A DNA stretch of 64,000 nucleotides from Nitrospinales bacterium (GCA_965223795.1 CBDCXL010000002.1:70105-134104); one strand, 5' to 3'; positions 5,401 through 49,683 are shown, numbered from the stretch's first letter. Numbers and translations are program-made. Notes: generated from the letters alone by a model not told the origin.

Positions 5401-7373
5401 ACCTTGTAGGTCGTCTCGGGTTCAGACAGAGCCGTATTGCCTTTCCAGCCGTAATCCCAGACGGAACCGTCGTAGGCCAGGATCTGGCCTTTTTCATCGT
5501 CGGTGTGGCCGGGCTTGCCCTGAGGCGGCAGCATGTACTTCACCCAGTCCTTGACGTTGACGACCGGCGCTTTCTTCGTCCAGTCGCTCTTGCCTTTGTC
5601 GACGATCTTGAACTTCTTGCCGAACCAGTCCATCGTCTTGCCGACCAGCTTGTCGGAACTCACGCCTTTGGGAATGCGTCCCTTACGATCGGGAAGCTCC
5701 TGCAGCGGACGCATGACGTCGGTGCTGCCGAACGGGTAGTTGCCATCCTGCAGCGTGTTGTACACGCGCCAGTAACCCCACATGCCGGCAACGTAATGAT
5801 GCGCGACGTGGCAGTGGAACAGAAAGTCGCCCGCCAGACGCTGGCACAGGCCGGAACCGCACTCGGTCTCAAGGTCCAGCGCTTCGGAAGGACCGATGAC
5901 TTCCACGTCGACGCGGTCGGTGGTCGTGCGCACGACCGGGTACTTGACCGGGCCGTTGTAGGCCGCGGTGATCAAACTGTCGATACCCGGTTCCCGCTTG
6001 GGTGAACGGGTCCAGCGGATGGATCCGCCATGCGGATGATGCGAGTGGAACACTTCGCCGCCGCCGTGGATCAGGCGGAACTTCGCCGGATCGCCCAGGT
6101 AGGACCGGGGGATCGTGGTCGGTGCGTCGGCAAAGGTGTAGGAGCTGTACGACAACGACTCATCCTCGTAGTGGAACATCTTTTCCTGTACTGCGAGGTT
6201 GTTGATGCCGAACGGCTCACTGCGATAGTTCATCGCGCGGGCAGAAGGACGGTACGCGTCGGTCTGCGGATCGCGCTGCGGAATCATCTCGCCGTGACGG
6301 TTCAGCGGACGGAAAGACTCGTCACCGACTTCGTGGTAGAACAGCACGAATTCGCGGAAGTCCTTGTCCTCGTCGTTGGCGATCATCGCCATCCAGCCGG
6401 ATTCCAGCGGACCGCCGGTCCACGGATCCAGATACCTGGAACCTTTGGGCTCGACGATGAACGCGCCGATCAGACCCAGCGAGGAAGGATCGCGGCCGGC
6501 ATGACTCTGGATCATGTGGCTGCCTTCCTGCTCGTCGATGGGAATGAACCACTCGAAATCCTGCGATTCGCCGGTTTTGATGATGGCGCCGGGAGACGCA
6601 GCCGTCGCCGGTGCGCCGCTGGAGCTGATGATCATGGCGGAACCGTTGACCTGAAAGCCGATGTCTTCGTCCTCGACTTCATTGCGGACCTTGAAGCGCA
6701 CGCAGTCGCCCTGGTTGCCGCGGATGGTCAGGGGCTGAATGGCGTCGCCCTGAAGCCCCGTGGACACCATGCCCGGATCCAGCTCGTCTTCACGAGCCGC
6801 GGCGTTCTTTTCTTCTTCCTTGCGCACCTTGTCGACGTCCTTGGTGAGCACGTACATGTAGCCGGGATAGTAGTCGCCCCACTGGTTCAACGTGACCTCC
6901 ACGTTGATGGCGGTCACGTCATACGTCTTGACCGGTGCGGAGCTGGGGCAGTGCGCCCCTTTGTACACTTTATCCGCGGCTTCGGAAGGTCCCAGCAGAT
7001 AGCTCTGGCCGAGCTGATGCGCCGACCAGGAATCGTGAAAACCGCCTCCCGAGGATGCCGGCGCGGCGTGCTCTTTGAGCTTGCCCTGCAGGCGGTCCAT
7101 GAGCTTCATGAAGGTCTGGTTCATGCGCTCCTGCCGGTTCTCCATGCCGCTCATCATTTCCTCGGTGTTGACCTGCTGTTCCAGCTTCTTGAGCCAGGCC
7201 GGCTGGTCTACCGCGGGTCCGATGCTCGAGGGCTTGGGATGCATGGAATGATCCATCTTCATCTGTGCGCCTGCGGGAAGCCCCCATCCCAGGACCAGAA
7301 AGGCCAAGAGCGGAACCATCCAGATTCCCACGCTCAGGCCGCGCACCCGATTCGGAATTTGCCTTTGCTTCAT
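2418..7373 (-). CDS. giant (1651 aa) secreted multicopper oxidase, copy A; MofA/MnxG-size class
   Basis: AGGAGG RBS upstream of ATG 7373 and a Sec-type signal (..GLPAGA/Q). Met/His motif MKMDHSMH. Canonical HCHVAHHYVAGM at nt 5781-5816. HxH motifs HSHHPHGG, IHPH and WHDH. Three homologous modules. Confidence 0.9.
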   Translation of the reverse strand: MKQRQIPNRVRGLSVGIWMVPLLAFLVLGWGLPAGAQMKMDHSMHPKPSSIGPAVDQPAWLKKLEQQVNTEEMMSGMENRQERMNQTFMKLMDRLQGKLKEHAAPASSGGGFHDSWSAHQLGQSYLLGPSEAADKVYKGAHCPSSAPVKTYDVTAINVEVTLNQWGDYYPGYMYVLTKDVDKVRKEEEKNAAAREDELDPGMVSTGLQGDAIQPLTIRGNQGDCVRFKVRNEVEDEDIGFQVNGSAMIISSSGAPATAASPGAIIKTGESQDFEWFIPIDEQEGSHMIQSHAGRDPSSLGLIGAFIVEPKGSRYLDPWTGGPLESGWMAMIANDEDKDFREFVLFYHEVGDESFRPLNRHGEMIPQRDPQTDAYRPSARAMNYRSEPFGINNLAVQEKMFHYEDESLSYSSYTFADAPTTIPRSYLGDPAKFRLIHGGGEVFHSHHPHGGSIRWTRSPKREPGIDSLITAAYNGPVKYPVVRTTTDRVDVEVIGPSEALDLETECGSGLCQRLAGDFLFHCHVAHHYVAGMWGYWRVYNTLQDGNYPFGSTDVMRPLQELPDRKGRIPKGVSSDKLVGKTMDWFGKKFKIVDKGKSDWTKKAPVVNVKDWVKYMLPPQGKPGHTDDEKGQILAYDGSVWDYGWKGNTALSEPETTYKVAKYKSPHPGKRHPIQFAPQTGKLAWPHMTPHFGKRVPFARHHGGAPWLEPFHLMPDDEILDTESGSGKTGPNVESTAPAKPGEQGRWSLCPKGAGRKQYNLHFINTPIELTPAVGDTAPVIDKYGLIYVIDEDMAEVKADPKKAIPLVIRANVYDCVDLLLSSEWNDDDFTNFQMSKLNIHPHFFQFDNQASDGVISGFSYDQSMRPYTQFSKKMKDGHHVGMPVPMNAKVLKATKPGDTVVEIEMAKGATPFHVGADIIVGIEVPNGKDARWIKSISPDPNKAFAKDGKYKITFTEGMKHAHKKGEIVTTEYVRYRWWVDADLGLVFWHDHAFGATTWPHGGIGSTIVEPWGSTYHDPETGKEIRSGPVADIHGSEPFAYGRNGSFRELVAQLHDTVPHTAQLVSKGNPPGLSRKNAIAAGQSISFQMPDTMLEVAFPHLNGGTHTTGGGFNFRAASLSSRLRANKDASKLFSSKVHGDPVTPMLRAYVGDNIMFRVLHGMMNETHTWVVSGHGYRPERYDRDSRVTNALHVGIAERYDLATTAGGYQQMAGDYLYYDGRTSHLSEGSWGIIRVHDKLQKDLKVLPSNRDFAKKAKKTLCPKGAPVKNFSVVAINKALKFNPNAEDEIEVDFERKLLLANANAKIFALEGEVSKAADDGAMPHPLTIRANIGDCIKIKLTNRLKEGNASLHANNVAFDPLDSQGINVGNNPGDQTVAPGKSKTYTYYAHPDYGLNGALLWDFGNLTTNVRDGMYGAIIIGPRGSVYRDPETGKDISLGNSWKADVIVDKTYPGNEHLENYRDFALYFQDEDNILGTSFMPYLQNVAGLTGVNYRLEPWTYREDEGCELGNIFTPCVAADSDPATPVLKAHAGDRVMINVFGAHNEQNQMFNLDGHQWRRHIMQEGSDMIDVEEFGGGEYIQAFFTAGGTYRNPGTYLWLNARTPYQQAGQWGYFKVLPQGEQSILPLNKGDGSGKKAETAPAIGEERLSMNR
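2496..3602. repeat. near-identical block shared with 10416-11522 (third module of the MCO paralogues)
   Basis: Constant 7920-nt offset. By-eye alignment shows only scattered SNPs, and only 5 differences over ~369 aa. Identity ends abruptly at ~3600/11520. Confidence 0.85.
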
Positions 7374-42928: not shown

Positions 42929-44113
42929 TTGCAAAACCTTCTCTACTTACAAGGGGTTAGCGTATTTTCCCCAGGCCGGAAACAGGGACCGGCGGCCGCG
43001 GCTTTGTGGCTTTCCGTCTGCCTGCTTTTCGCCGCCTGCGATATGAAACTGCCCAAGCCGCCGCCGGACCTGTTTTACAAGTTCAACGTGCTGCCGGTGG
43101 GACAGGGGCCGTCGGATCTATTGACCCTGGATCTCAACCGCGACGGCCAGGCGGACATCGTTTCGGCGAACGCGAAAAACAGCTCGCTGTCGATCCTGTA
43201 CGGCAAGGGGGACGGCACTTTCCTCCCCACGGAGAACCTGGCGGTGCCGCTGGAACCCACCCGGCTGGCGGCGGGGGATATCAACGGCGACGGGCTGCTG
43301 GACCTTGCGGTCAACTCGCGCGGCACGCATTCGCTGACAATTTTATTACAACGGGTGAACGGGTCGTTCCGCCGGGTGAAGCCGGTGCCCACGGGCCGGG
43401 TGCCGCTGGCGGTGATCCTCGACGATTTCAACGGCGACGGCCGCCTCGACGCGGCGGTCACGCTGACGTTCGACAAGCTGGAGATCCACCTGGGCAACGG
43501 CGACGGCACGTTCAAGATGGGCGCAACCTACTACACCGGGTCGCGGTCGTTCTCGGGCGTGTCCGGCGATTTCAACGGCGACGGCAACCGCGACATCGCG
43601 GCGGCGGCGACCAGCTCCGGCGCCAGCTCGCTGCGCGTGTTCTGGGGCAACGGCGACGGCACCTTTCAGAAACCGCTCAGGCTGGTCGAGGGGTTGATGC
43701 CGCTTGCGGTCACGGCGCACGACATGAACGCGGACGGCAAGGAGGACCTCATCGTCGGCGCGGGCCAGGGCGACAATATGTACCTGATCCTGTCCAACGG
43801 CGACGGCACGTTTCAAAAGGAGACCGCCTTTTCCGGCGGCGGCGGGCCGATCTCGCTGGTCGCCGAGCATTTCAACGACGATACGCTGATGGACGTGGCG
43901 GTGGCCAACTCGCGCAGCAGCAGCTTTTCCCTCATCATCCGCAGGCCGGACGGCCGGTTCCGCTACCCCACGCGGGATTACATAGTGGAAGGCGGCACGC
44001 CGCTCGCCATCACCAGCGGCGACTACAACGACGACGGCATGGCGGACATCGCGGTCTCCAGCAACGCCTACCACACGGTGGAAGTGTACCTCCGGCGCCG
44101 GATCTTGCAGTGA
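42929..44113 (+). CDS. FG-GAP/VCBS-repeat (beta-propeller) lipoprotein
   Basis: Repeated D.N.DG..D motifs (DLNRDGQADIV, DINGDGLLDLAV, DFNGDGRLD, and more). LFAAC lipobox. Start codon uncertain. Confidence 0.8.
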   Translation: MQNLLYLQGVSVFSPGRKQGPAAAALWLSVCLLFAACDMKLPKPPPDLFYKFNVLPVGQGPSDLLTLDLNRDGQADIVSANAKNSSLSILYGKGDGTFLPTENLAVPLEPTRLAAGDINGDGLLDLAVNSRGTHSLTILLQRVNGSFRRVKPVPTGRVPLAVILDDFNGDGRLDAAVTLTFDKLEIHLGNGDGTFKMGATYYTGSRSFSGVSGDFNGDGNRDIAAAATSSGASSLRVFWGNGDGTFQKPLRLVEGLMPLAVTAHDMNADGKEDLIVGAGQGDNMYLILSNGDGTFQKETAFSGGGGPISLVAEHFNDDTLMDVAVANSRSSSFSLIIRRPDGRFRYPTRDYIVEGGTPLAITSGDYNDDGMADIAVSSNAYHTVEVYLRRRILQ

Positions 44114-44264
44114 ACGGAAAGGCGTCTGACAGGATGAACGGGATGAAAGCGGAAAAATTCGTATAATGACCCGATTCAAAGAAAAACGAAGGATCGAAGC
44201 GGCGATCGCACAGCAAAACCAATAAAAGTAGCTTAAGATTGGGGTTGCCCGGGGTTCTGCATGA

Positions 44265-44297
44265 CCGCTTCTGACGACTCGAAGCGGACATTTTTTT
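44265..44297 (+). terminator. hairpin plus T7 terminator
   Basis: CCGCTTC-loop-GAAGCGG-aca-TTTTTTT. Confidence 0.6.
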
Positions 44298-44318
44298 GAA
44301 GAAAGGAAATTTTAAATT

Positions 44319-45212
44319 ATGCCAGGAAACAGTCGAATCGGCATTGTAGGCGTTGGCCGCATGGGGTCCAATATGGCCCGGCGTCTCAAAGATCAGGGTT
44401 TTGTCATCACTGCGGTCCAGGATCTCCACGCTCCGGCAGCGGAAGCATTGGCAAAGGAACTTTCCTGCGAGCAGGCTGCGACGCCGGCGTGCGTCGCGGA
44501 ATTAAGCGATGTCGTGCTGACTGTGGTTTCCAATGACGCGGCAATGGGTGAGATTTTCGCGGAAGAAAAACCCACCAGCCTGCTTTGCCATGCCAGGGGC
44601 AGATTATTTATCAATTTCGCAACGGTCAGCCCCGAAACACACATCAAAACGGAAGCCCGCGTCGAGAGTAAAGGCGGAACCAACCTGGAAGCGTTGATGG
44701 CCAGCAGTATCACCCAGGCACGCGAAGGCACTCTCTATCTTATGTGCGGCGGGAAAAAGCCGGTCTTTGAACAGGCTCGAACAATACTTGAGGCAATGAG
44801 CTCCAGGCTTCTCTATGTCGGCCCCGCGGGTGACGCGGCAAAGGTCAAAGCCCTCGTCAATATGGTCATGAACAGCAACACCGCCGCGTTGGCGGAAGGC
44901 CTGGGGCTCGGAGACGCCCTTTCGCTGGATCTGACAATGCTTCGTGAGGTCTTTGGTCAGACCGGTGCGGCCTCGCGCGTTCTTGAAACGGACGGCGAAG
45001 ACATGCAAATTCGGGATCATGAATGCTATTTCTCCGCCGCGCATGCGGCCAAGGATTCCGGAATCGCCCTCGACCTGGCGCGATCCGCAGGATTGAAGCT
45101 GCCGATAGCACAAGCCACTTTCGATCAATACCAGCGTCTCGTCGAAGCGGGTAAGGGAGAACTGGACAAGTCGGCTGTGGCGGAACTGGTGTTTAAAGGA
45201 AGAATGCAATAA
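44319..45212 (+). CDS. NAD(P)-dependent oxidoreductase, 3-hydroxyisobutyrate / 6-phosphogluconate dehydrogenase-like family
   Basis: IGIVGVGRMGSNMARRL Rossmann motif and the family layout. Confidence 0.85.
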   Translation: MPGNSRIGIVGVGRMGSNMARRLKDQGFVITAVQDLHAPAAEALAKELSCEQAATPACVAELSDVVLTVVSNDAAMGEIFAEEKPTSLLCHARGRLFINFATVSPETHIKTEARVESKGGTNLEALMASSITQAREGTLYLMCGGKKPVFEQARTILEAMSSRLLYVGPAGDAAKVKALVNMVMNSNTAALAEGLGLGDALSLDLTMLREVFGQTGAASRVLETDGEDMQIRDHECYFSAAHAAKDSGIALDLARSAGLKLPIAQATFDQYQRLVEAGKGELDKSAVAELVFKGRMQ

Positions 45213-45223
45213 AGGGAGCGACA

Positions 45224-46093
45224 ATGGCACTCGAAGATGAATTGGGAGATATTTTACAAAAGGCCCGGGATGGAAAAGCCTGGTCTCTGGACGACCTTGT
45301 TCGCGCAACGGACCTTTCGGTGGACGACCTCCGGCAGATAGAACGTTATCAACTGACGCCGGAGGATGCGGATGTCTTGAAGCTGGCGCAGGCTTTGGGT
45401 CTGGATGGACCGGCCTTGATCGACATTGCCCGGGAACGCTGGGAACCCGACAAACCCGCCGATGATCCGGATTTCGATCTGGTCTGCCTGAATGTATTCA
45501 TGGGCGAGTACCCGGTAAATTGCTACCTGCTGCGCTGCAAGGCAACGGGAGAAACTGCGGTGGTGGACACGGGAGCAAACCCGAAAACCATCATCCGCAA
45601 AGCCCGGGAAATGGGGGTTCGGCCCGGCAAGATTTTATTGACCCATGCCCACCCGGATCACGCAGGCGGCCTGGGAGAACTCAGCGATGCTTTCAACTGC
45701 CCTACCTATATCGACCATAAAGAGCCCAGGCCCAAAGGAAGCGACGACTTTAAAATTGTCAAGGAAGGGGATGAAATAACGCTGGGCAATTTGCGAATCC
45801 AGTGCATTGAAACGCCCGGTCATACAGCAGGCGGGGTTTCTTACCTGATAAACCAGACCCTGCTATCGGGGGATGTGATTTTCGCAGGGTCCATGGGACG
45901 TGCCAATTCCTCGTGGGAAGACCTGTTTAATTCCATCACCCGAAAGGTATTGCGCTTGCCCGATGCGACGGGCATTCACCCCGGCCACGGTCCCGCGACC
46001 ACCGTGGGGCAGGAGAAACATCACAATCCGTTTTTTAAAGGACGCGTGGGGAATGATGCAGACGGGATGGGCGGGATAAAAGCGAAAACCTGA
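45224..46093 (+). CDS. XRE-like HTH fused to an MBL-fold metallo-hydrolase
   Basis: N-terminal HTH-like segment (WSLDDLVRATDLSVDDLRQIE). THAHPDHAGG metallo-beta-lactamase motif. Confidence 0.8.
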   Translation: MALEDELGDILQKARDGKAWSLDDLVRATDLSVDDLRQIERYQLTPEDADVLKLAQALGLDGPALIDIARERWEPDKPADDPDFDLVCLNVFMGEYPVNCYLLRCKATGETAVVDTGANPKTIIRKAREMGVRPGKILLTHAHPDHAGGLGELSDAFNCPTYIDHKEPRPKGSDDFKIVKEGDEITLGNLRIQCIETPGHTAGGVSYLINQTLLSGDVIFAGSMGRANSSWEDLFNSITRKVLRLPDATGIHPGHGPATTVGQEKHHNPFFKGRVGNDADGMGGIKAKT

Positions 46094-46096
46094 TTG

Positions 46097-46127
46097 AACC
46101 GCAAAGACGCAAAGGACGCAAAGAAAA
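46097..46127. repeat. left terminal inverted repeat
   Basis: AACCGCAAAGACGCAAAGGACGCAAAGAAAA, containing three CGCAAAG sub-repeats. Confidence 0.85.
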
Positions 46128-46218
46128 GCAAAAACAGGGGACAGGGTTAACAGGATAAAAACCAGATTGAAAGGAAAACCTGCCTCGCGCAAAGACGCCA
46201 AGCCCCCCTCACCTCAGT

Positions 46219-46243
46219 CCTCTCCCCCCTCAGGGGGGAGAGG
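46219..46243 (-). terminator. perfect 11-bp hairpin downstream of the cargo operon (no U-tract)
   Basis: CCTCTCCCCCC-tca-GGGGGGAGAGG. Confidence 0.35.
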
Positions 46244-46289
46244 AAGTTGGCAGCCAATCACTAAATTACAGTAGGTTGCTTGAGGAACC

Positions 46290-46769
46290 TTATATTTCTT
46301 CCTCTTCCTTTGAAATCATCAAGCCAGGTACTTTACGAACTGCGTCCTCATACTCCTCTTTGGCAAGAAGTAAATAGGCATCTTTTTCGTGGGCAATGTT
46401 TACCAACCAGGGAGACCCGTCTTCTCTAAGCAGACATAAATCTTCCGGAAGTCTGGGTTGCACCCAGTCAAACAAGTTCTTTGAAACGCCGGTTAAGATT
46501 GGCAGGATCTCTGCACATAGCCTATATGAATAAACGCTTGCCGTATGGTCCAAAAGCCTGGTGCCAGGCCATTCTGACTTTTCCTCACGACTGATTAAAA
46601 AATCATTTAACGATTCCAAGAGCCTTTTTCCCTCATCACTCAGTTCGATTGAACCTCGGACCACCAATAGAAACGCATTGCAATAATCCAGAGAAAGCTC
46701 AAGCAGGTTGTAATAATCTTCCTCAGCTGGAGTTTTATCAAAGCAGTATTGACTGCGCTTCATAGTCAC
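46290..46769 (-). CDS. hypothetical soluble protein (159 aa), cassette cargo
   Basis: ORF in the AT-rich segment. Start is GTG 46769 (GTGA overlap) or ATG 46763, 2 nt after the upstream stop. No motif recognised. Confidence 0.65.
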   Translation of the reverse strand: MTMKRSQYCFDKTPAEEDYYNLLELSLDYCNAFLLVVRGSIELSDEGKRLLESLNDFLISREEKSEWPGTRLLDHTASVYSYRLCAEILPILTGVSKNLFDWVQPRLPEDLCLLREDGSPWLVNIAHEKDAYLLLAKEEYEDAVRKVPGLMISKEEEEI

Positions 46770-47233
46770 CCACTATTTAAATCCAGCGGTTTTCTAAATC
46801 GAGATAAAGTCTGTAAATATTTAACTTCTAAAAATATCAGTCCAACTGGAATTATTAGAACTGCTACTAGATTGTATGACCCCAATGAAGACAACATTGT
46901 AATAAAATGCAACCAAAAAACATGAAAGATGGGACTATATACACTGGTTAAAGCCATCCCAGCAATAGTTGCAACGAGGATATTCATTAATATTCGACAG
47001 ATAGAAATAAATATTTCTAAACGAAATACCCATCTCCCTATATTTCTGCGCCATATATTTACTAAATTAAAAACATTCATGAAAATATATGTGACTCTAC
47101 TAGACAGTATTGTTATCAAGGTCAGAAGTGAAAATTCTCTCAAAAAAGAATCATATTTGAAGATTGTAAGAATTATAAAATCTGATACTAACAGGATTAC
47201 GTATATAGCTTTATAGATCAAAACGAAATTCAT
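46766..47233 (-). CDS. hypothetical polytopic membrane protein (155 aa, 4-5 TM), cassette cargo
   Basis: Very AT-rich ORF with several hydrophobic helices, translationally coupled to the downstream ORF. Confidence 0.65.
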   Translation of the reverse strand: MNFVLIYKAIYVILLVSDFIILTIFKYDSFLREFSLLTLITILSSRVTYIFMNVFNLVNIWRRNIGRWVFRLEIFISICRILMNILVATIAGMALTSVYSPIFHVFWLHFITMLSSLGSYNLVAVLIIPVGLIFLEVKYLQTLSRFRKPLDLNSG

Positions 47234-47337
47234 AAATTGTGAATTCCAATCTTTTGCACAATGAAGCTATTACTAAGGGAGATAAAGGAATCTAAAGGGG
47301 TCGAGTCTTGACTTGGTAAGTATTTTCCTTTGGCTGT

Positions 47338-47368
47338 TTTTCTTTGCGTCCTTTGCGCCTTTGCGGTT
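47338..47368. repeat. right terminal inverted repeat
   Basis: Reverse complement reads AACCGCAAAGGCGCAAAGGACGCAAAGAAAA. Confidence 0.85.
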
Positions 47369-47523
47369 TGATTGCCTTTGCTTTTCCACACGCCAATAAG
47401 GCTTTGGCCGAACACAGCTCGACACCCGCTTGTCAAAATACTGGAGGTGGCTCGGCGCGAGGATGGGTTTTTCCCTTCTATCCGCCTTTCATCCTGTCCA
47501 TCCTGTCCGGTCTTTTCTCGGGA

Positions 47524-49683
47524 TCAACCGGACAGCGCGAATTCGGGGACGGTGGGGAGCTTGCGCCATTTGTTGAAATGGAACATGAGGTCGCCGCTTT
47601 TGACGGGCTGGATCTGTTTGAATTGTTCGCTGCCGTCGGGCTGTTGCTCGACGATGACGATTTTCTTGTCCATGAGGCTGGTGGCCTTGCGCACGAACAG
47701 GAAGGTGTAGGGCTGGTCGCGCGCGATGATGCGGTGCAGCTTGCGGGCCATTTTTATCTGCTCGTCGCGGTCGTACTCGCGGCGGATGCGGACGATGAGG
47801 CGGTCCACTTCGGGTTTCTCGTAGCCGACGAAGTTCAGCCGGTTGGGGCCGGTCTGGCTGGAGTGCCAGAGCTGGTACATGTCCGGGTTGGGTCCGGTGC
47901 TCCAGCCTAATATGAGGGCGTCGAACTTGAGGGCGTTGACGAAGTCCTTGAGGAACACCGCCCACTCGAACAACTGGGTGTTGCACTTGACGCCGATTTT
48001 TTTCCAGCTGTTCTGCACGATGCTGAGAATGTTTTTCCTTACTGGGTTGCCGCTGTTGGTGATGAGGTTGAACTCGAACAGCTTGCCGTCTTTTTCCAGC
48101 CAGCCGTCGGCGTTTTTCTCCCAGCCTTCTTCCTTGAGCAGCCGCACGGCGCCTTCGGGATCGTAGGGGATGGGCTGCACGCTGTGGTCGTACCAGTCGG
48201 TGATCTTGGCGTAGGGCCCGGTGACCCGCTCGCCTTCGCCGTACAGGATGTATTCGATGATCTCCTCGACGTTGACGGCCATGCCCAGGGCGGTGCGCAC
48301 CTTGACGGACTGAAACAACGGCTTGCGCAGGTTGTAGCCGATGTAGGAGTAGGTCATGCCGACGGTGGAAAAGCTCTGGTACTTGGGATCGTCGCGCAGC
48401 CGTTCGACCTGGTGCGGCTCGACGCCGTAGCCGTCCACCGCGCCGGAGTAAAACTCCATCTCGCGCACCAGCACGTCCGGGATGATGCGCATGATGTATT
48501 CGTGGTATTCGGGCGGGCCGTCCCAGTAATCCTCATTGCGGGTGAGCACGATCTGCTCGTCGGATTTCCATTCCTTGAAGATATAGGCTCCGGTGCCGAC
48601 GGGATTGCGGTTGAAGCGGCTGTCGCGCAGGGTGAAGGTTTCGGGGTCCTCGCCACGTTCTTTGGCTTCCTCTTGCAGCCTGCCCTCGTTGAGAAGGTGC
48701 TCGGGCAGCATCCCCATCGTTGCCCAGGAAAACAGCGCCGGAGAGAACAGGCGCTTGTAGACGATCCGCACCTTGTGGCCGTTCACGATCTCCATGCTTT
48801 TGATCGGTTCGTAGTTCGAGGTCCGCGGCGAGGCATTCTTCGGGTTCATGATGGACTGGTAGGTGAACAGCACATCGCCGGCGTCGAATTCGTGGCCGTC
48901 GTGAAAGCGCACGCCCTTGCGCAGCTCGAACACGATCACGGGGTTGTGCTCTTTGACGGGCAGCAGCGTTTGGTATTTGCCGGCGAGACGCTCCTGAACC
49001 TTGTTATCCTGGGCGCGGATGTACTTGGCGTATGGGAAACTCTTAAAATAGGTTTCGCCCAGCAGTGTTTCGAGCGGCTTGAAAAAATCCTGATCGATCT
49101 TGTTCAAGGTGAACTTCAGCCGCACGGGCCGTTTGAGCTTGTAGGCAACGTCTTCCATGCGCGGCCGCCCCTTTTCCATTTGCGGCTTGCCGTTGTCATC
49201 GAGAACCGGGAGGGCGATTTTCTCATCGAGCGTTTCACCCTCGACCACCTCCACGGACTTCAGGTTTTGTGTCCAGGCGGCCTCGGAAGCCAGCGCATCG
49301 CGCAGGAATCGCTTCAGATCGCGGGCATCGGCCAGCGGCGGCACCTCCGGCGGCGCGGATTTCTTTAGATGTTCGAGATCGACGGCCAGGTAGGCTTCCT
49401 CGAACTGGTCCCTTGATATGGCGAGCCGCAGCCTGAAATCGAGGTTTTCGTCCAGATCCATCAGGGTGTCGAACACGCGGCTCTCGATCTCGCTGCTGGC
49501 GGTGTCGGCGCTGAGCACGGGGTTGAGGATCTGGGCGTCGCCGGAGGAGGCGCTCAAGTACTTGAAGAGGCGGTCCGGATTGCCCACGGCCTGCTTTTCG
49601 TAGGTCGGCACCCAAAAGAAGGACTGGGCCAGGATCAGGATCAAAAGCAGGGGCAGATAGATGAGGATCCGTTTGATGGTCAT
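47524..49683 (-). CDS. ABC transporter substrate-binding protein, family 5 (peptide/nickel type), with no adjacent permease or ATPase
   Basis: N-terminal anchor and length/sequence pattern of SBP_bac_5 (..NP.R.LF.., ..W..D..). Confidence 0.85.
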   Translation of the reverse strand: MTIKRILIYLPLLLILILAQSFFWVPTYEKQAVGNPDRLFKYLSASSGDAQILNPVLSADTASSEIESRVFDTLMDLDENLDFRLRLAISRDQFEEAYLAVDLEHLKKSAPPEVPPLADARDLKRFLRDALASEAAWTQNLKSVEVVEGETLDEKIALPVLDDNGKPQMEKGRPRMEDVAYKLKRPVRLKFTLNKIDQDFFKPLETLLGETYFKSFPYAKYIRAQDNKVQERLAGKYQTLLPVKEHNPVIVFELRKGVRFHDGHEFDAGDVLFTYQSIMNPKNASPRTSNYEPIKSMEIVNGHKVRIVYKRLFSPALFSWATMGMLPEHLLNEGRLQEEAKERGEDPETFTLRDSRFNRNPVGTGAYIFKEWKSDEQIVLTRNEDYWDGPPEYHEYIMRIIPDVLVREMEFYSGAVDGYGVEPHQVERLRDDPKYQSFSTVGMTYSYIGYNLRKPLFQSVKVRTALGMAVNVEEIIEYILYGEGERVTGPYAKITDWYDHSVQPIPYDPEGAVRLLKEEGWEKNADGWLEKDGKLFEFNLITNSGNPVRKNILSIVQNSWKKIGVKCNTQLFEWAVFLKDFVNALKFDALILGWSTGPNPDMYQLWHSSQTGPNRLNFVGYEKPEVDRLIVRIRREYDRDEQIKMARKLHRIIARDQPYTFLFVRKATSLMDKKIVIVEQQPDGSEQFKQIQPVKSGDLMFHFNKWRKLPTVPEFALSG

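Follow-up and report, generated by a model that had tools for sequence, protein, structure and literature searches.

A 64,000-nucleotide (nt) stretch of DNA from a Nitrospinales bacterium (GCA_965223795.1, CBDCXL010000002.1:70105-134104; hereafter the window) carries, between two inverted repeats that we call arms, an AT-rich islet of two small genes. One encodes a soluble alpha/beta protein of 157-159 amino acids (aa), IMM159, and the other a multi-pass membrane protein of 155 aa, TM155. On one side lies the gene of an SBP_bac_5 solute-binding protein (SBP), and on the other a block of a dehydrogenase and an MBL hydrolase (DH-MBL), followed by the gene of an FG-GAP repeat protein (Table 1). 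The source is a Nitrospinaceae genome, and its MBL protein is 92% identical to one in the Nitrospinales metagenome-assembled genome (MAG) CBDCWG010000012.1. Nitrospinaceae are key marine nitrite oxidisers and are known almost only from MAGs. Our analysis suggests that IMM159 is likely an orphan immunity protein of the polymorphic-toxin kind, and that TM155 is probably another; it shows the islet between the arms to be foreign accessory DNA.

All that a preliminary description had reported on the architecture of the islet is confirmed. The inverted repeats, then given as 31 bp with 30 matching positions, extend to 34 nt with 94% complementarity and classify as terminal inverted repeats. Both arms have the layout AAC + CGCAAAG-N-CGCAAAG-GA-CGCAAAG + AAAA, with the three CGCAAAG sub-repeats noted before. 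Within the window, the 31-nt core, with one mismatch between the arms, is confined to these two sites, and none of 100 shuffles gave a match. The hexamer TGATTG abuts the outer ends of both arms as described, and its left copy supplies the stop codon of the MBL open reading frame (ORF). The interior is AT-rich, with a GC content of 0.29-0.37 inside the arm-bounded segment and 0.55-0.62 outside. It holds the two tightly linked minus-strand ORFs, and neither of them matches Pfam, NCBIfam or PADLOC, in agreement with the earlier statement that they show no recognisable motif. Homology with the family member P0001 (MKRSQY...) points to the ATG at 46763, 2 nt past the TM155 stop codon, as the most likely start of IMM159, and not to the overlapping GTG.

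The hairpin reported at 46219-46243 is also present and is longer than described. It is kept at the same position in locus L150 of the closest relative (5478-5503) and probably marks or stabilises the 3' end of the transcript. It was also considered as an intrinsic terminator, and this reading was rejected, as the terminator scan called none in the region. An Rfam scan of the region returned chance-level matches only and no rRNA.

Table 1 Positions of the features in and around the islet, counted along the window (GC3, GC content at third codon positions)
Feature	Position	Strand	Remarks
FG-GAP repeat protein gene, native flank	42929..44113	+	GC3 0.87; convergent neighbour of SBP in relatives, defines the empty site
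DH-MBL block: dehydrogenase 44319-45212, helix-turn-helix (HTH)-MBL hydrolase 45224-46093	44275..46059	+	GC3 0.61; separate second insertion at the hot spot
TGATTG direct repeat, left copy	46091..46096		Holds the MBL stop codon TGA; abuts the outer end of the left arm
Left arm, AAC + three CGCAAAG octamer units + AAAAGCA; 'TCACC-(octamer)x3' class	46097..46130	+	Inverted repeat, common to the closest relative
Short repeats GGACAGG / AACAGGATAAAA ('ATCCTGT'-type) accompanying the arms	46141..46165	+	More copies at 47490-47509, 44125-44150 and 46060-46090, and beside arms in L121 and L150
Armlet, CTCG + CGCAAAGACGCCAAG, degenerate third arm	46185..46202	+	Paralogue of the arm + GGTTTT + ATCC module; aligns to L150 5685-5727
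C6/G6 hairpin, arms 46218-46230 / 46232-46244, 13 nt each, 100% complementary	46218..46244		Directly 3' of the IMM159 gene; no T-run
IMM159, soluble alpha/beta protein, putative immunity protein	46290..46763	-	GC3 0.44; ORF 46290-46769 from the overlapping GTG
TM155, multi-pass membrane protein, rare family; candidate membrane-type orphan immunity protein	46766..47233	-	GC3 0.27
Right arm, 30/31 identical to the left arm, inverted	47335..47368	-	Lineage-specific; no L150 counterpart beyond the 12-nt remnant GCAAAGACGCAA
TGATTG direct repeat, right copy	47369..47374		Abuts the outer end of the right arm
ATCCTGTCC x2 repeat, between the SBP stop codon and the right arm	47490..47509	-	Motif family also beside arms in L121 and L150
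SBP_bac_5 solute-binding protein gene, native flank	47524..49683	-	GC3 0.84

Putative immunity genes

We found 50 homologues of IMM159, all of them unannotated and none with a Pfam domain. In all available genomic contexts, an upstream ORF ends 0-13 nt before the homologue begins, and five architectures were observed. The upstream ORF encodes a 981-aa RHS/YD-shell protein in L151, orphan fragments of 276/310 aa downstream of a 2166-aa SpvB/TcdB/RHS toxin in L152-154, a 497-aa protein in an E1/JAB/E2 ubiquitin-like operon in L236/237 and a 139-aa fragment in L239. One and the same domain of about 70 aa forms the C-terminal end of every one of them (blastp between the C-termini, E 1e-11 to 1e-29). 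The domain is His-rich, with the consensus ...LAKEA..KGG.T..EA...RGPE.HPNRP..PHIHIGPI.HIPVK and the motif HPxRP...PHIHxGPxxHI. Searches of it against Pfam, NCBIfam and PDB returned compositional matches to designed helical repeats only.

A small gene directly after a variable toxin C-terminal domain is the genomic signature that defines polymorphic-toxin immunity proteins (PMC3482391). Since the homologues of IMM159 directly follow one common toxin C-terminal domain, IMM159 can be assigned as a putative polymorphic-toxin immunity protein. A tblastn search with the toxin C-terminal domain and the RHS core found no match in the 64-kb window or in loci L150, L155 and L121 of the relative. Since neither the toxin domain nor an RHS gene lies in the window or in these loci, IMM159 would be an orphan immunity gene, a kind that is well documented (PMC10539506, PMC12247911, PMC7400221). 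Our confidence in this orphan-immunity reading of the islet is good as far as IMM159 is concerned. DUF4262 is not documented as an immunity family in the literature searched, and it was not used as evidence.

The AlphaFold (AF2) model of the IMM159 family is very confident (pLDDT 96.5, pTM 0.90). A Foldseek search of the model against PDB gave no significant match (best E 0.08, TM ~0.25), and a sequence-profile search of PDB gave 0 matches. The fold may be an undescribed one, as far as the model tells. Residues W65, P66, G67, T68, W100, P103, D108, H125, E126 and E137 are invariant in the family.

In L236 (3504-4997), and also in L237, the His-rich domain ends a 497-aa protein that belongs to a bacterial ubiquitin-like operon with ThiF/E1, JAB, Prok-RING, UQ_con/E2 and FHA genes.

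TM155 has hydrophobic segments at residues 1-31, 69-103 and 110-143. No homologue turned up in a word-indexed search with it, and phmmer, run exhaustively, recovered six remote homologues over their full length (130-164 aa; E 4.5e-9 to 3e-4). One of the five contexts is a clear immunity position: in that of homologue P0052, an RHS C-terminal fragment with the DPLGL motif and a C-terminal domain stands 13 nt upstream of the gene, in an array of modules that each join an RHS fragment to a small membrane ORF. A second context is suggestive, with homologue P0055 of another Nitrospinaceae MAG in a run of small genes that includes a CPBP/Rce1-like protein, and two homologues stand alone. TM155 is thus probably, though not certainly, a membrane-type immunity protein, which would act against a membrane-acting Rhs C-terminal domain.

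The arm repeat and GxxExxY nuclease genes

To place the arms, one genome per species was scanned for the 24-nt core CGCAAAGRCGCAAAGGACGCAAAG, which returned at least 120 loci. The identical 24-mer is present in at least 120 species-level genomes, isolates included. Among the matches listed, to which the counts of arm pairs also refer, the hosts are Burkholderiales, Chloroflexia, Nostocales, Planctomycetota, Bacteroidota, Spirochaetota, Thermodesulfobacteriota, Nitrospinaceae and others. Arms in other genomes usually start with (T)TCAC or TTGAAC and have an A-rich end; the TTG of the left TGATTG copy matches the prefix TTGAAC, which is common in other phyla. Given that genomes of many phyla carry this very sequence, the 30/31 match between the two arms of the window is nothing special and dates no duplication.

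The pairs in other genomes behave differently from transposon ends. There are 65 convergent and 22 divergent pairs, and 53 of the 65 convergent ones are 4-150 nt apart and thus form short palindromes. The direct repeat that flanks these 65 pairs measures 0 nt in 45, 1 nt in 14, 2 nt in four, 3 nt in one and 4 nt (aaaa) in one, so the pair of the window is the sole one of 66 with a flanking direct repeat above 4 nt (6 nt). The repeat family makes no target-site duplication. Clustering of the 1029 ORFs within 400 nt of the arms at the 120 loci listed, a limited sample, revealed no recurrent transposase and no autonomous partner.

These results bear on the preliminary description, which took the islet for a product of DDE-type transposition and named three findings that would speak against it: a repeat of a generic kind, a lack of TGATTG at other copies, and relatives that carry the two genes without the repeats. 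Two of the three came out against it, as the repeat is generic and widespread (at least 120 genomes) and the other copies lack TGATTG. The third came out by half, as L150 has one of the two genes at the same locus, together with decayed repeats.

The phylogenetic spread and the small promoter-less genes also raised the reading as integron cassettes with attC sites. It was rejected, since the repeats are inverted rather than direct and are mostly isolated palindromes. The arm core was also found, always unannotated, on eight IMG/VR contigs (L363-L370) and on five large plasmids (AP025020.1, AP018315.1, NC_020157.1, NZ_CP020371.1 and NZ_AP027060.1) of cyanobacteria, Thiodictyon and Haliovirga. 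Viral contigs and plasmids are possible vehicles of the spread of the arm across phyla.

The sole recurrent family among the 1029 arm-adjacent ORFs is a protein of about 125 aa, TIGR04256 GxxExxY / PF13366 PDDEXK_3, of the PD-(D/E)XK kind. For the converse test, we sampled 83 GxxExxY genes from many phyla and defined bracketing as arrays of at least three octamers with the same architecture on both sides. Octamer arrays bracket 43 of the 83 genes, with the same octamer on both sides in 34 of the 43. The octamer variants around GxxExxY genes include CACAGAG, CACGGAG, CGCAAAG, CACGAAG, CGCAGAG and others. The arms of the window thus fall, as one variant, into a widespread 'TCACC + three octamers' class of repeats, and the gene that this class typically encloses encodes a PD-(D/E)XK nuclease. 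Members of the class have the prefix (T)TCACC/AAC on the outside, then three octamers in tandem (CGCAAAG-N, for example), and are A-rich at the inner end.

GxxExxY genes appear to be horizontally mobile, with 'multiple transfers, mixed clades' (PMC3424549). In the literature searched, GxxExxY, PF13366 and TIGR04256 appear as 'unknown function' only. We came across no account of the repeat, or of a link between it and GxxExxY genes, in the searchable literature, and a search for the repeat sequence itself found one coincidental oligo only.

At L083 (4237-4983), a G/C-rich repeat of about 300 nt (…PSPRPSPP…GEGQGEG… in translation) interrupts, in-frame, a GxxExxY gene between CGCAAAG arms, which suggests that yet another small element inserts into GxxExxY cassettes.

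History of the SBP/FG-GAP junction

In about 35 Nitrospinaceae genomes and metagenome contigs, SBP and the convergent FG-GAP gene are only 14-100 nt apart, representing the empty site, and the FG-GAP gene next to SBP in these relatives is the orthologue of the one in the window. GC3 is layered, rising from TM155 through IMM159 and the DH-MBL block to SBP and FG-GAP (Table 1). The empty sites and the atypical codon composition show the arm-bounded segment to be foreign accessory DNA. The preliminary description had called the islet a cargo-carrying non-autonomous element. Its foreign and accessory nature, with empty sites in about 35 relatives, is upheld, and the DDE-type ends are not.

The closest relative is represented by loci L150 and L155, whose SBP and FG-GAP proteins are 84% and 83% identical to those of the window. 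Only there does a homologue of the 159-aa gene (75% identity) lie at the SBP/FG-GAP junction, within a 957-nt insert. The same junction holds a 2.4-kb insertion of unrelated genes without arms in L157 (8140-10536), where, judging by the translations, the ORFs may encode a membrane protein of DedA type, a YCII-type protein and an NhaA-type antiporter. In L181, the junction contains 246 nt of repeats (a solo arm, a palindrome and a hairpin) and no gene. The SBP/FG-GAP junction is an insertion hot spot that received independent insertions in several lineages. When metagenomes were scanned for this junction, no match exceeded 74% aa identity, which allowed no nucleotide-level comparison of filled and empty alleles and hence no direct test for a target-site duplication.

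To determine whether the islet is one element, we compared its flanks with L150. The MAFFT alignment of these repeat-rich flanks was ambiguous because of paralogous modules and was replaced by explicit local alignments. The left arm and its inner flank (window 46160-46097) are about 90% identical to L150 5640-5700. Outside the left arm, similarity to L150 resumes in an ATCC-type repeat, which codes for the last residues of a 10-aa extension of MBL. From the SBP stop codon to the TM155 start, the right arm included, L150 has no counterpart and carries an unrelated palindrome instead. Since the left arm is common to L150 and the right arm and TM155 are not, the two arms differ in history. Either L150 lost the right arm and TM155, or these came in later, in line with the lower GC3 of TM155. 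The arm copies of L150 are diverged or decayed, and both arms of the window are intact. The earlier notion of a single unit inserted with its two ends does not agree with this pattern, in which L150 has the left-arm module and the 159-aa gene without the right arm and TM155, and distant relatives lack all of them.

The DH-MBL block is itself a displaced one. In the genome of the closest relative, the DH-MBL pair lies 1.96 Mb from the SBP locus and is bracketed by convergent CGCAAAG arms (L121 4924-4946, plus strand, and 6898-6921, minus strand). The genes that flank the pair differ in every relative (L121-L130), and no arms were found around it in L122-L130. Because the displaced pair of the relative is also bracketed by arms, the arms of this lineage lie at the edges of moved blocks. 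The MBL protein of the window has a 10-aa C-terminal extension (…DGMGGIKAKT, encoded at 46060-46093) that is absent in relatives, the L121 protein ending in …GNDA. Because this extension is encoded by an ATCCCG/ATCC-type intergenic repeat, the breakpoint of the rearrangement falls inside the MBL ORF.

Nitrospinaceae junctions carry a second class of conserved intergenic palindromes (…CCTTCGACAAGCTCAGGG…/…CCTGAGC…GTCGAAGG…) beside the arms, at L150 4829-4909, L121 7385-7470 and L181 8190-8270, which on translation give 'FDKLR'/'LRMT'-like peptides. Several short repeats of unrelated classes share junctions across lineages, namely the arms, the ATCCTGT repeats, the 'LRMT'-type palindromes and the C/G-rich hairpins.

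Proposed model and comparison with known systems

We then propose a model for the origin and role of the islet. It would have been assembled in steps at the hot spot between the convergent core genes SBP and FG-GAP. IMM159 would be a cytosolic immunity protein against the His-rich C-terminal toxin domain that is found on RHS and other toxins, and the most likely role of IMM159 and TM155 is to shield the cell against Rhs-type toxins that neighbouring bacteria deliver. In the minus-strand transcript that reads through from SBP, the arms would pair into a stem of about 31 bp. In both the minimum-free-energy and the centroid fold predicted for the 1.3-kb transcript, a 31-bp helix of the two arms forms the closing stem, and the arm-arm duplex is computed at -56.6 kcal/mol, as compared with -21.3 +/- 3.9 kcal/mol for shuffled partners, so the arms probably pair in the transcript. 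The stem may delimit or stabilise the two-gene mRNA, or permit its processing by RNase III, as in the intervening sequences (IVS) of 23S rRNA. In the Coxiella IVS, terminal inverted repeats pair into a 28-bp stem that is cleaved by RNase III, with tandem heptamers at its 5' side (PMC4990558). At the DNA level, the arms could be substrates of a trans-acting recombination or mobilisation without duplication, with the GxxExxY nuclease as the prime candidate enzyme. For this account as a whole, a small accessory islet of two orphan immunity genes assembled stepwise, whose arms pair in RNA and serve a mobilisation free of target-site duplication, our confidence is moderate, and it is the account we favour.

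Several observations weigh against it. Two TM155 homologues stand alone beside housekeeping genes, and the immunity assignment of TM155 depends on one RHS-linked remote homologue (32% identity, E 1.7e-7). No arms were found at any other IMM159-family or TM155-family locus, so the arms are no general vehicle for these genes. In L181, arms reached the SBP/FG-GAP junction without a gene, and their independent insertion fits as well as a role as cassette boundaries. The 6-nt TGATTG duplication, whose chance at a fixed position is about 1 in 4096, is not accounted for by the model. The RNA pairing and RNase III processing are thermodynamic predictions. The arm variant is weakly correlated with GxxExxY protein similarity (60.0% vs 58.2% identity; 18 of 2000 permutations), which does not amount to a demonstrated specificity of enzyme for site, and no GxxExxY gene, nor any further arm, lies in the 64-kb window.

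The alternative that survives best is that the bracketing is incidental. The arms would then be REP/MITE-like repeats (REP, repetitive extragenic palindrome; MITE, miniature inverted-repeat transposable element) that pile up independently between convergent genes, as the ATCCTGT repeats, the 'LRMT' palindromes and the C/G hairpins do, and the immunity genes would have arrived separately, for example by recombination after horizontal transfer, with no functional relation to the arms. This fits most arms, which are solo or form short palindromes beside housekeeping genes, as well as the gene-less repeats of L181, the arm-less insertion of L157, the different histories of the two arms and the arm-less IMM159 and TM155 loci elsewhere. 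However, the only two full arms in 64 kb both flank the islet, convergently, and are the best-preserved copies; that they are intact where those of L150 are diverged or decayed suggests selection for pairing. Arms also bracket the moved DH-MBL block in the relative, and with about half of the sampled GxxExxY genes enclosed by matched arms, the bracketing of small accessory genes goes with the repeat class and is not due to chance. We therefore regard an incidental bracketing as possible, yet on the unlikely side.

A bolder form of the mobilisation step goes further than the favoured account. The octamer inverted repeats and the enclosed GxxExxY gene might together be an undescribed, pan-prokaryotic minimal mobile element that is driven by the nuclease, makes no target-site duplication, crosses phyla and at times captures small genes; the window would then represent a capture of immunity genes and the relative a capture of DH-MBL. 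This remains a tentative and rather doubtful proposal.

TM155 and IMM159 could instead form one intracellular two-gene module, for example a membrane toxin plus its cytosolic antitoxin, or a pair for defence or abortive infection. Their tight linkage, with stop and start codons 2 nt apart or overlapping, their common position between the arms and their shared character as small low-GC accessory genes speak for it. However, PADLOC matches neither protein, L150 has the IMM159 homologue alone with no TM155 gene, no IMM159 neighbour stands beside the TM155 homologues, and the two families were never neighbours in the other loci inspected. The GC3 of 0.27 for TM155 vs 0.44 for IMM159 suggests separate acquisitions, and IMM159 has a clear other partner in the RHS-type C-terminal domain, a domain that TM155 lacks. 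The pair is not a conserved module and not a toxin/immunity pair, and we consider such a two-gene module very improbable. From the earlier suggestion of a toxin/immunity or abortive-infection pair, one gene of the toxin/immunity kind is retained. The pairing itself finds no support: the cognate toxin of IMM159 is an RHS C-terminal domain unrelated to TM155, the TM155 family is itself found in an immunity position, and the two are never paired elsewhere.

Least tenable is a single non-autonomous DDE-type transposon with 31-bp terminal inverted repeats and a 6-bp target-site duplication, mobilised in trans and carrying a membrane/soluble toxin-immunity or abortive-infection pair: the near-identical repeats, the exact 6-nt direct repeat at both ends, the AT-rich foreign interior and the empty site in relatives invite this reading, but the other 65 convergent pairs lack a target-site duplication, no transposase recurs near the arms at the 120 loci listed, the identity of the arms across phyla means that their match dates no duplication, L150 shares the left arm without the right arm and TM155, and the two genes come from unrelated families.

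Under the favoured account, Nitrospinaceae appear to carry defences against contact-dependent Rhs-type toxins, which implies antagonism in their habitat. The analysis defines three unannotated families: a cytosolic immunity family with a confident model, its His-rich toxin C-terminal domain and a rare membrane family. If the association of the repeats with GxxExxY genes reflects mobility, it would give a function to a very large 'unknown' PD-(D/E)XK family and explain intergenic repeats that yield many spurious small ORFs in environmental genomes.

Finally, we compared the islet with known systems. Orphan immunity genes as such are a known kind, of which the IMM159 and TM155 families are new members without annotation or structure, and no description of such a bracketing, by an octamer-repeat class that is pan-bacterial and linked to GxxExxY genes, turned up in the searchable literature. 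Like the orphan immunity islets of polymorphic toxins (Rhs, type VI secretion system and contact-dependent inhibition), the islet has homologues directly downstream of RHS C-terminal toxin domains and of orphan fragments (PMC3482391), and its genes are toxin-less, horizontally acquired and arranged as two unrelated immunity-type genes in tandem (PMC10539506, PMC12247911, PMC7400221). In contrast to them, neither Pfam nor NCBIfam contains the two families or the cognate toxin domain, for none of which a solved relative exists, the host belongs to a marine nitrite-oxidiser lineage, the Nitrospinaceae, and the islet lies between inverted repeats rather than in an rhs or type VI secretion locus or a recombinase-associated island.

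The repeats resemble the REP/REPIN-RAYT system in that short inverted doublets are dispersed as intergenic hairpins (53 of 65 pairs within 150 nt) (PMC3337134, PMC3116915), the repeats typically enclose a small gene of the nuclease type, target-site duplications are lacking and the repeat copies are non-autonomous. However, the gene flanked by this repeat class is a GxxExxY PD-(D/E)XK gene and not an HUH/Y1 (IS200-like) transposase gene, the arm consists of three tandem octamers whereas REP is a short palindrome, and the 24-mer is common to many phyla whereas REPINs are lineage-specific and vertically inherited. MITEs and cargo-carrying transposons with terminal inverted repeats share with the window the inverted repeats, the lack of a transposase inside, the AT-rich interior and a direct repeat at both ends, the latter in this copy only; they differ in that the present repeat family is free of target-site duplications, has no autonomous partner among the loci surveyed and shows two ends of different history.

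With the ORF-containing IVS of 23S rRNA in Coxiella, Leptospira and Salmonella, the islet shares a small ORF between terminal inverted repeats and a stem of about 28-31 bp, predicted here (PMC4990558). Tandem 7-8-nt repeats just inside the 5' arm are another common trait, and IVS are regarded as selfish elements whose mobility mechanism is unknown (PMC4990558). Their stem is an RNase III substrate; that of the window is a folding prediction. The islet differs from them in its site, between protein-coding genes and not in helix 25 or 45 of 23S rRNA, and in its cargo, which comprises putative immunity genes here and GxxExxY genes elsewhere, instead of the S23p four-helix-bundle protein.

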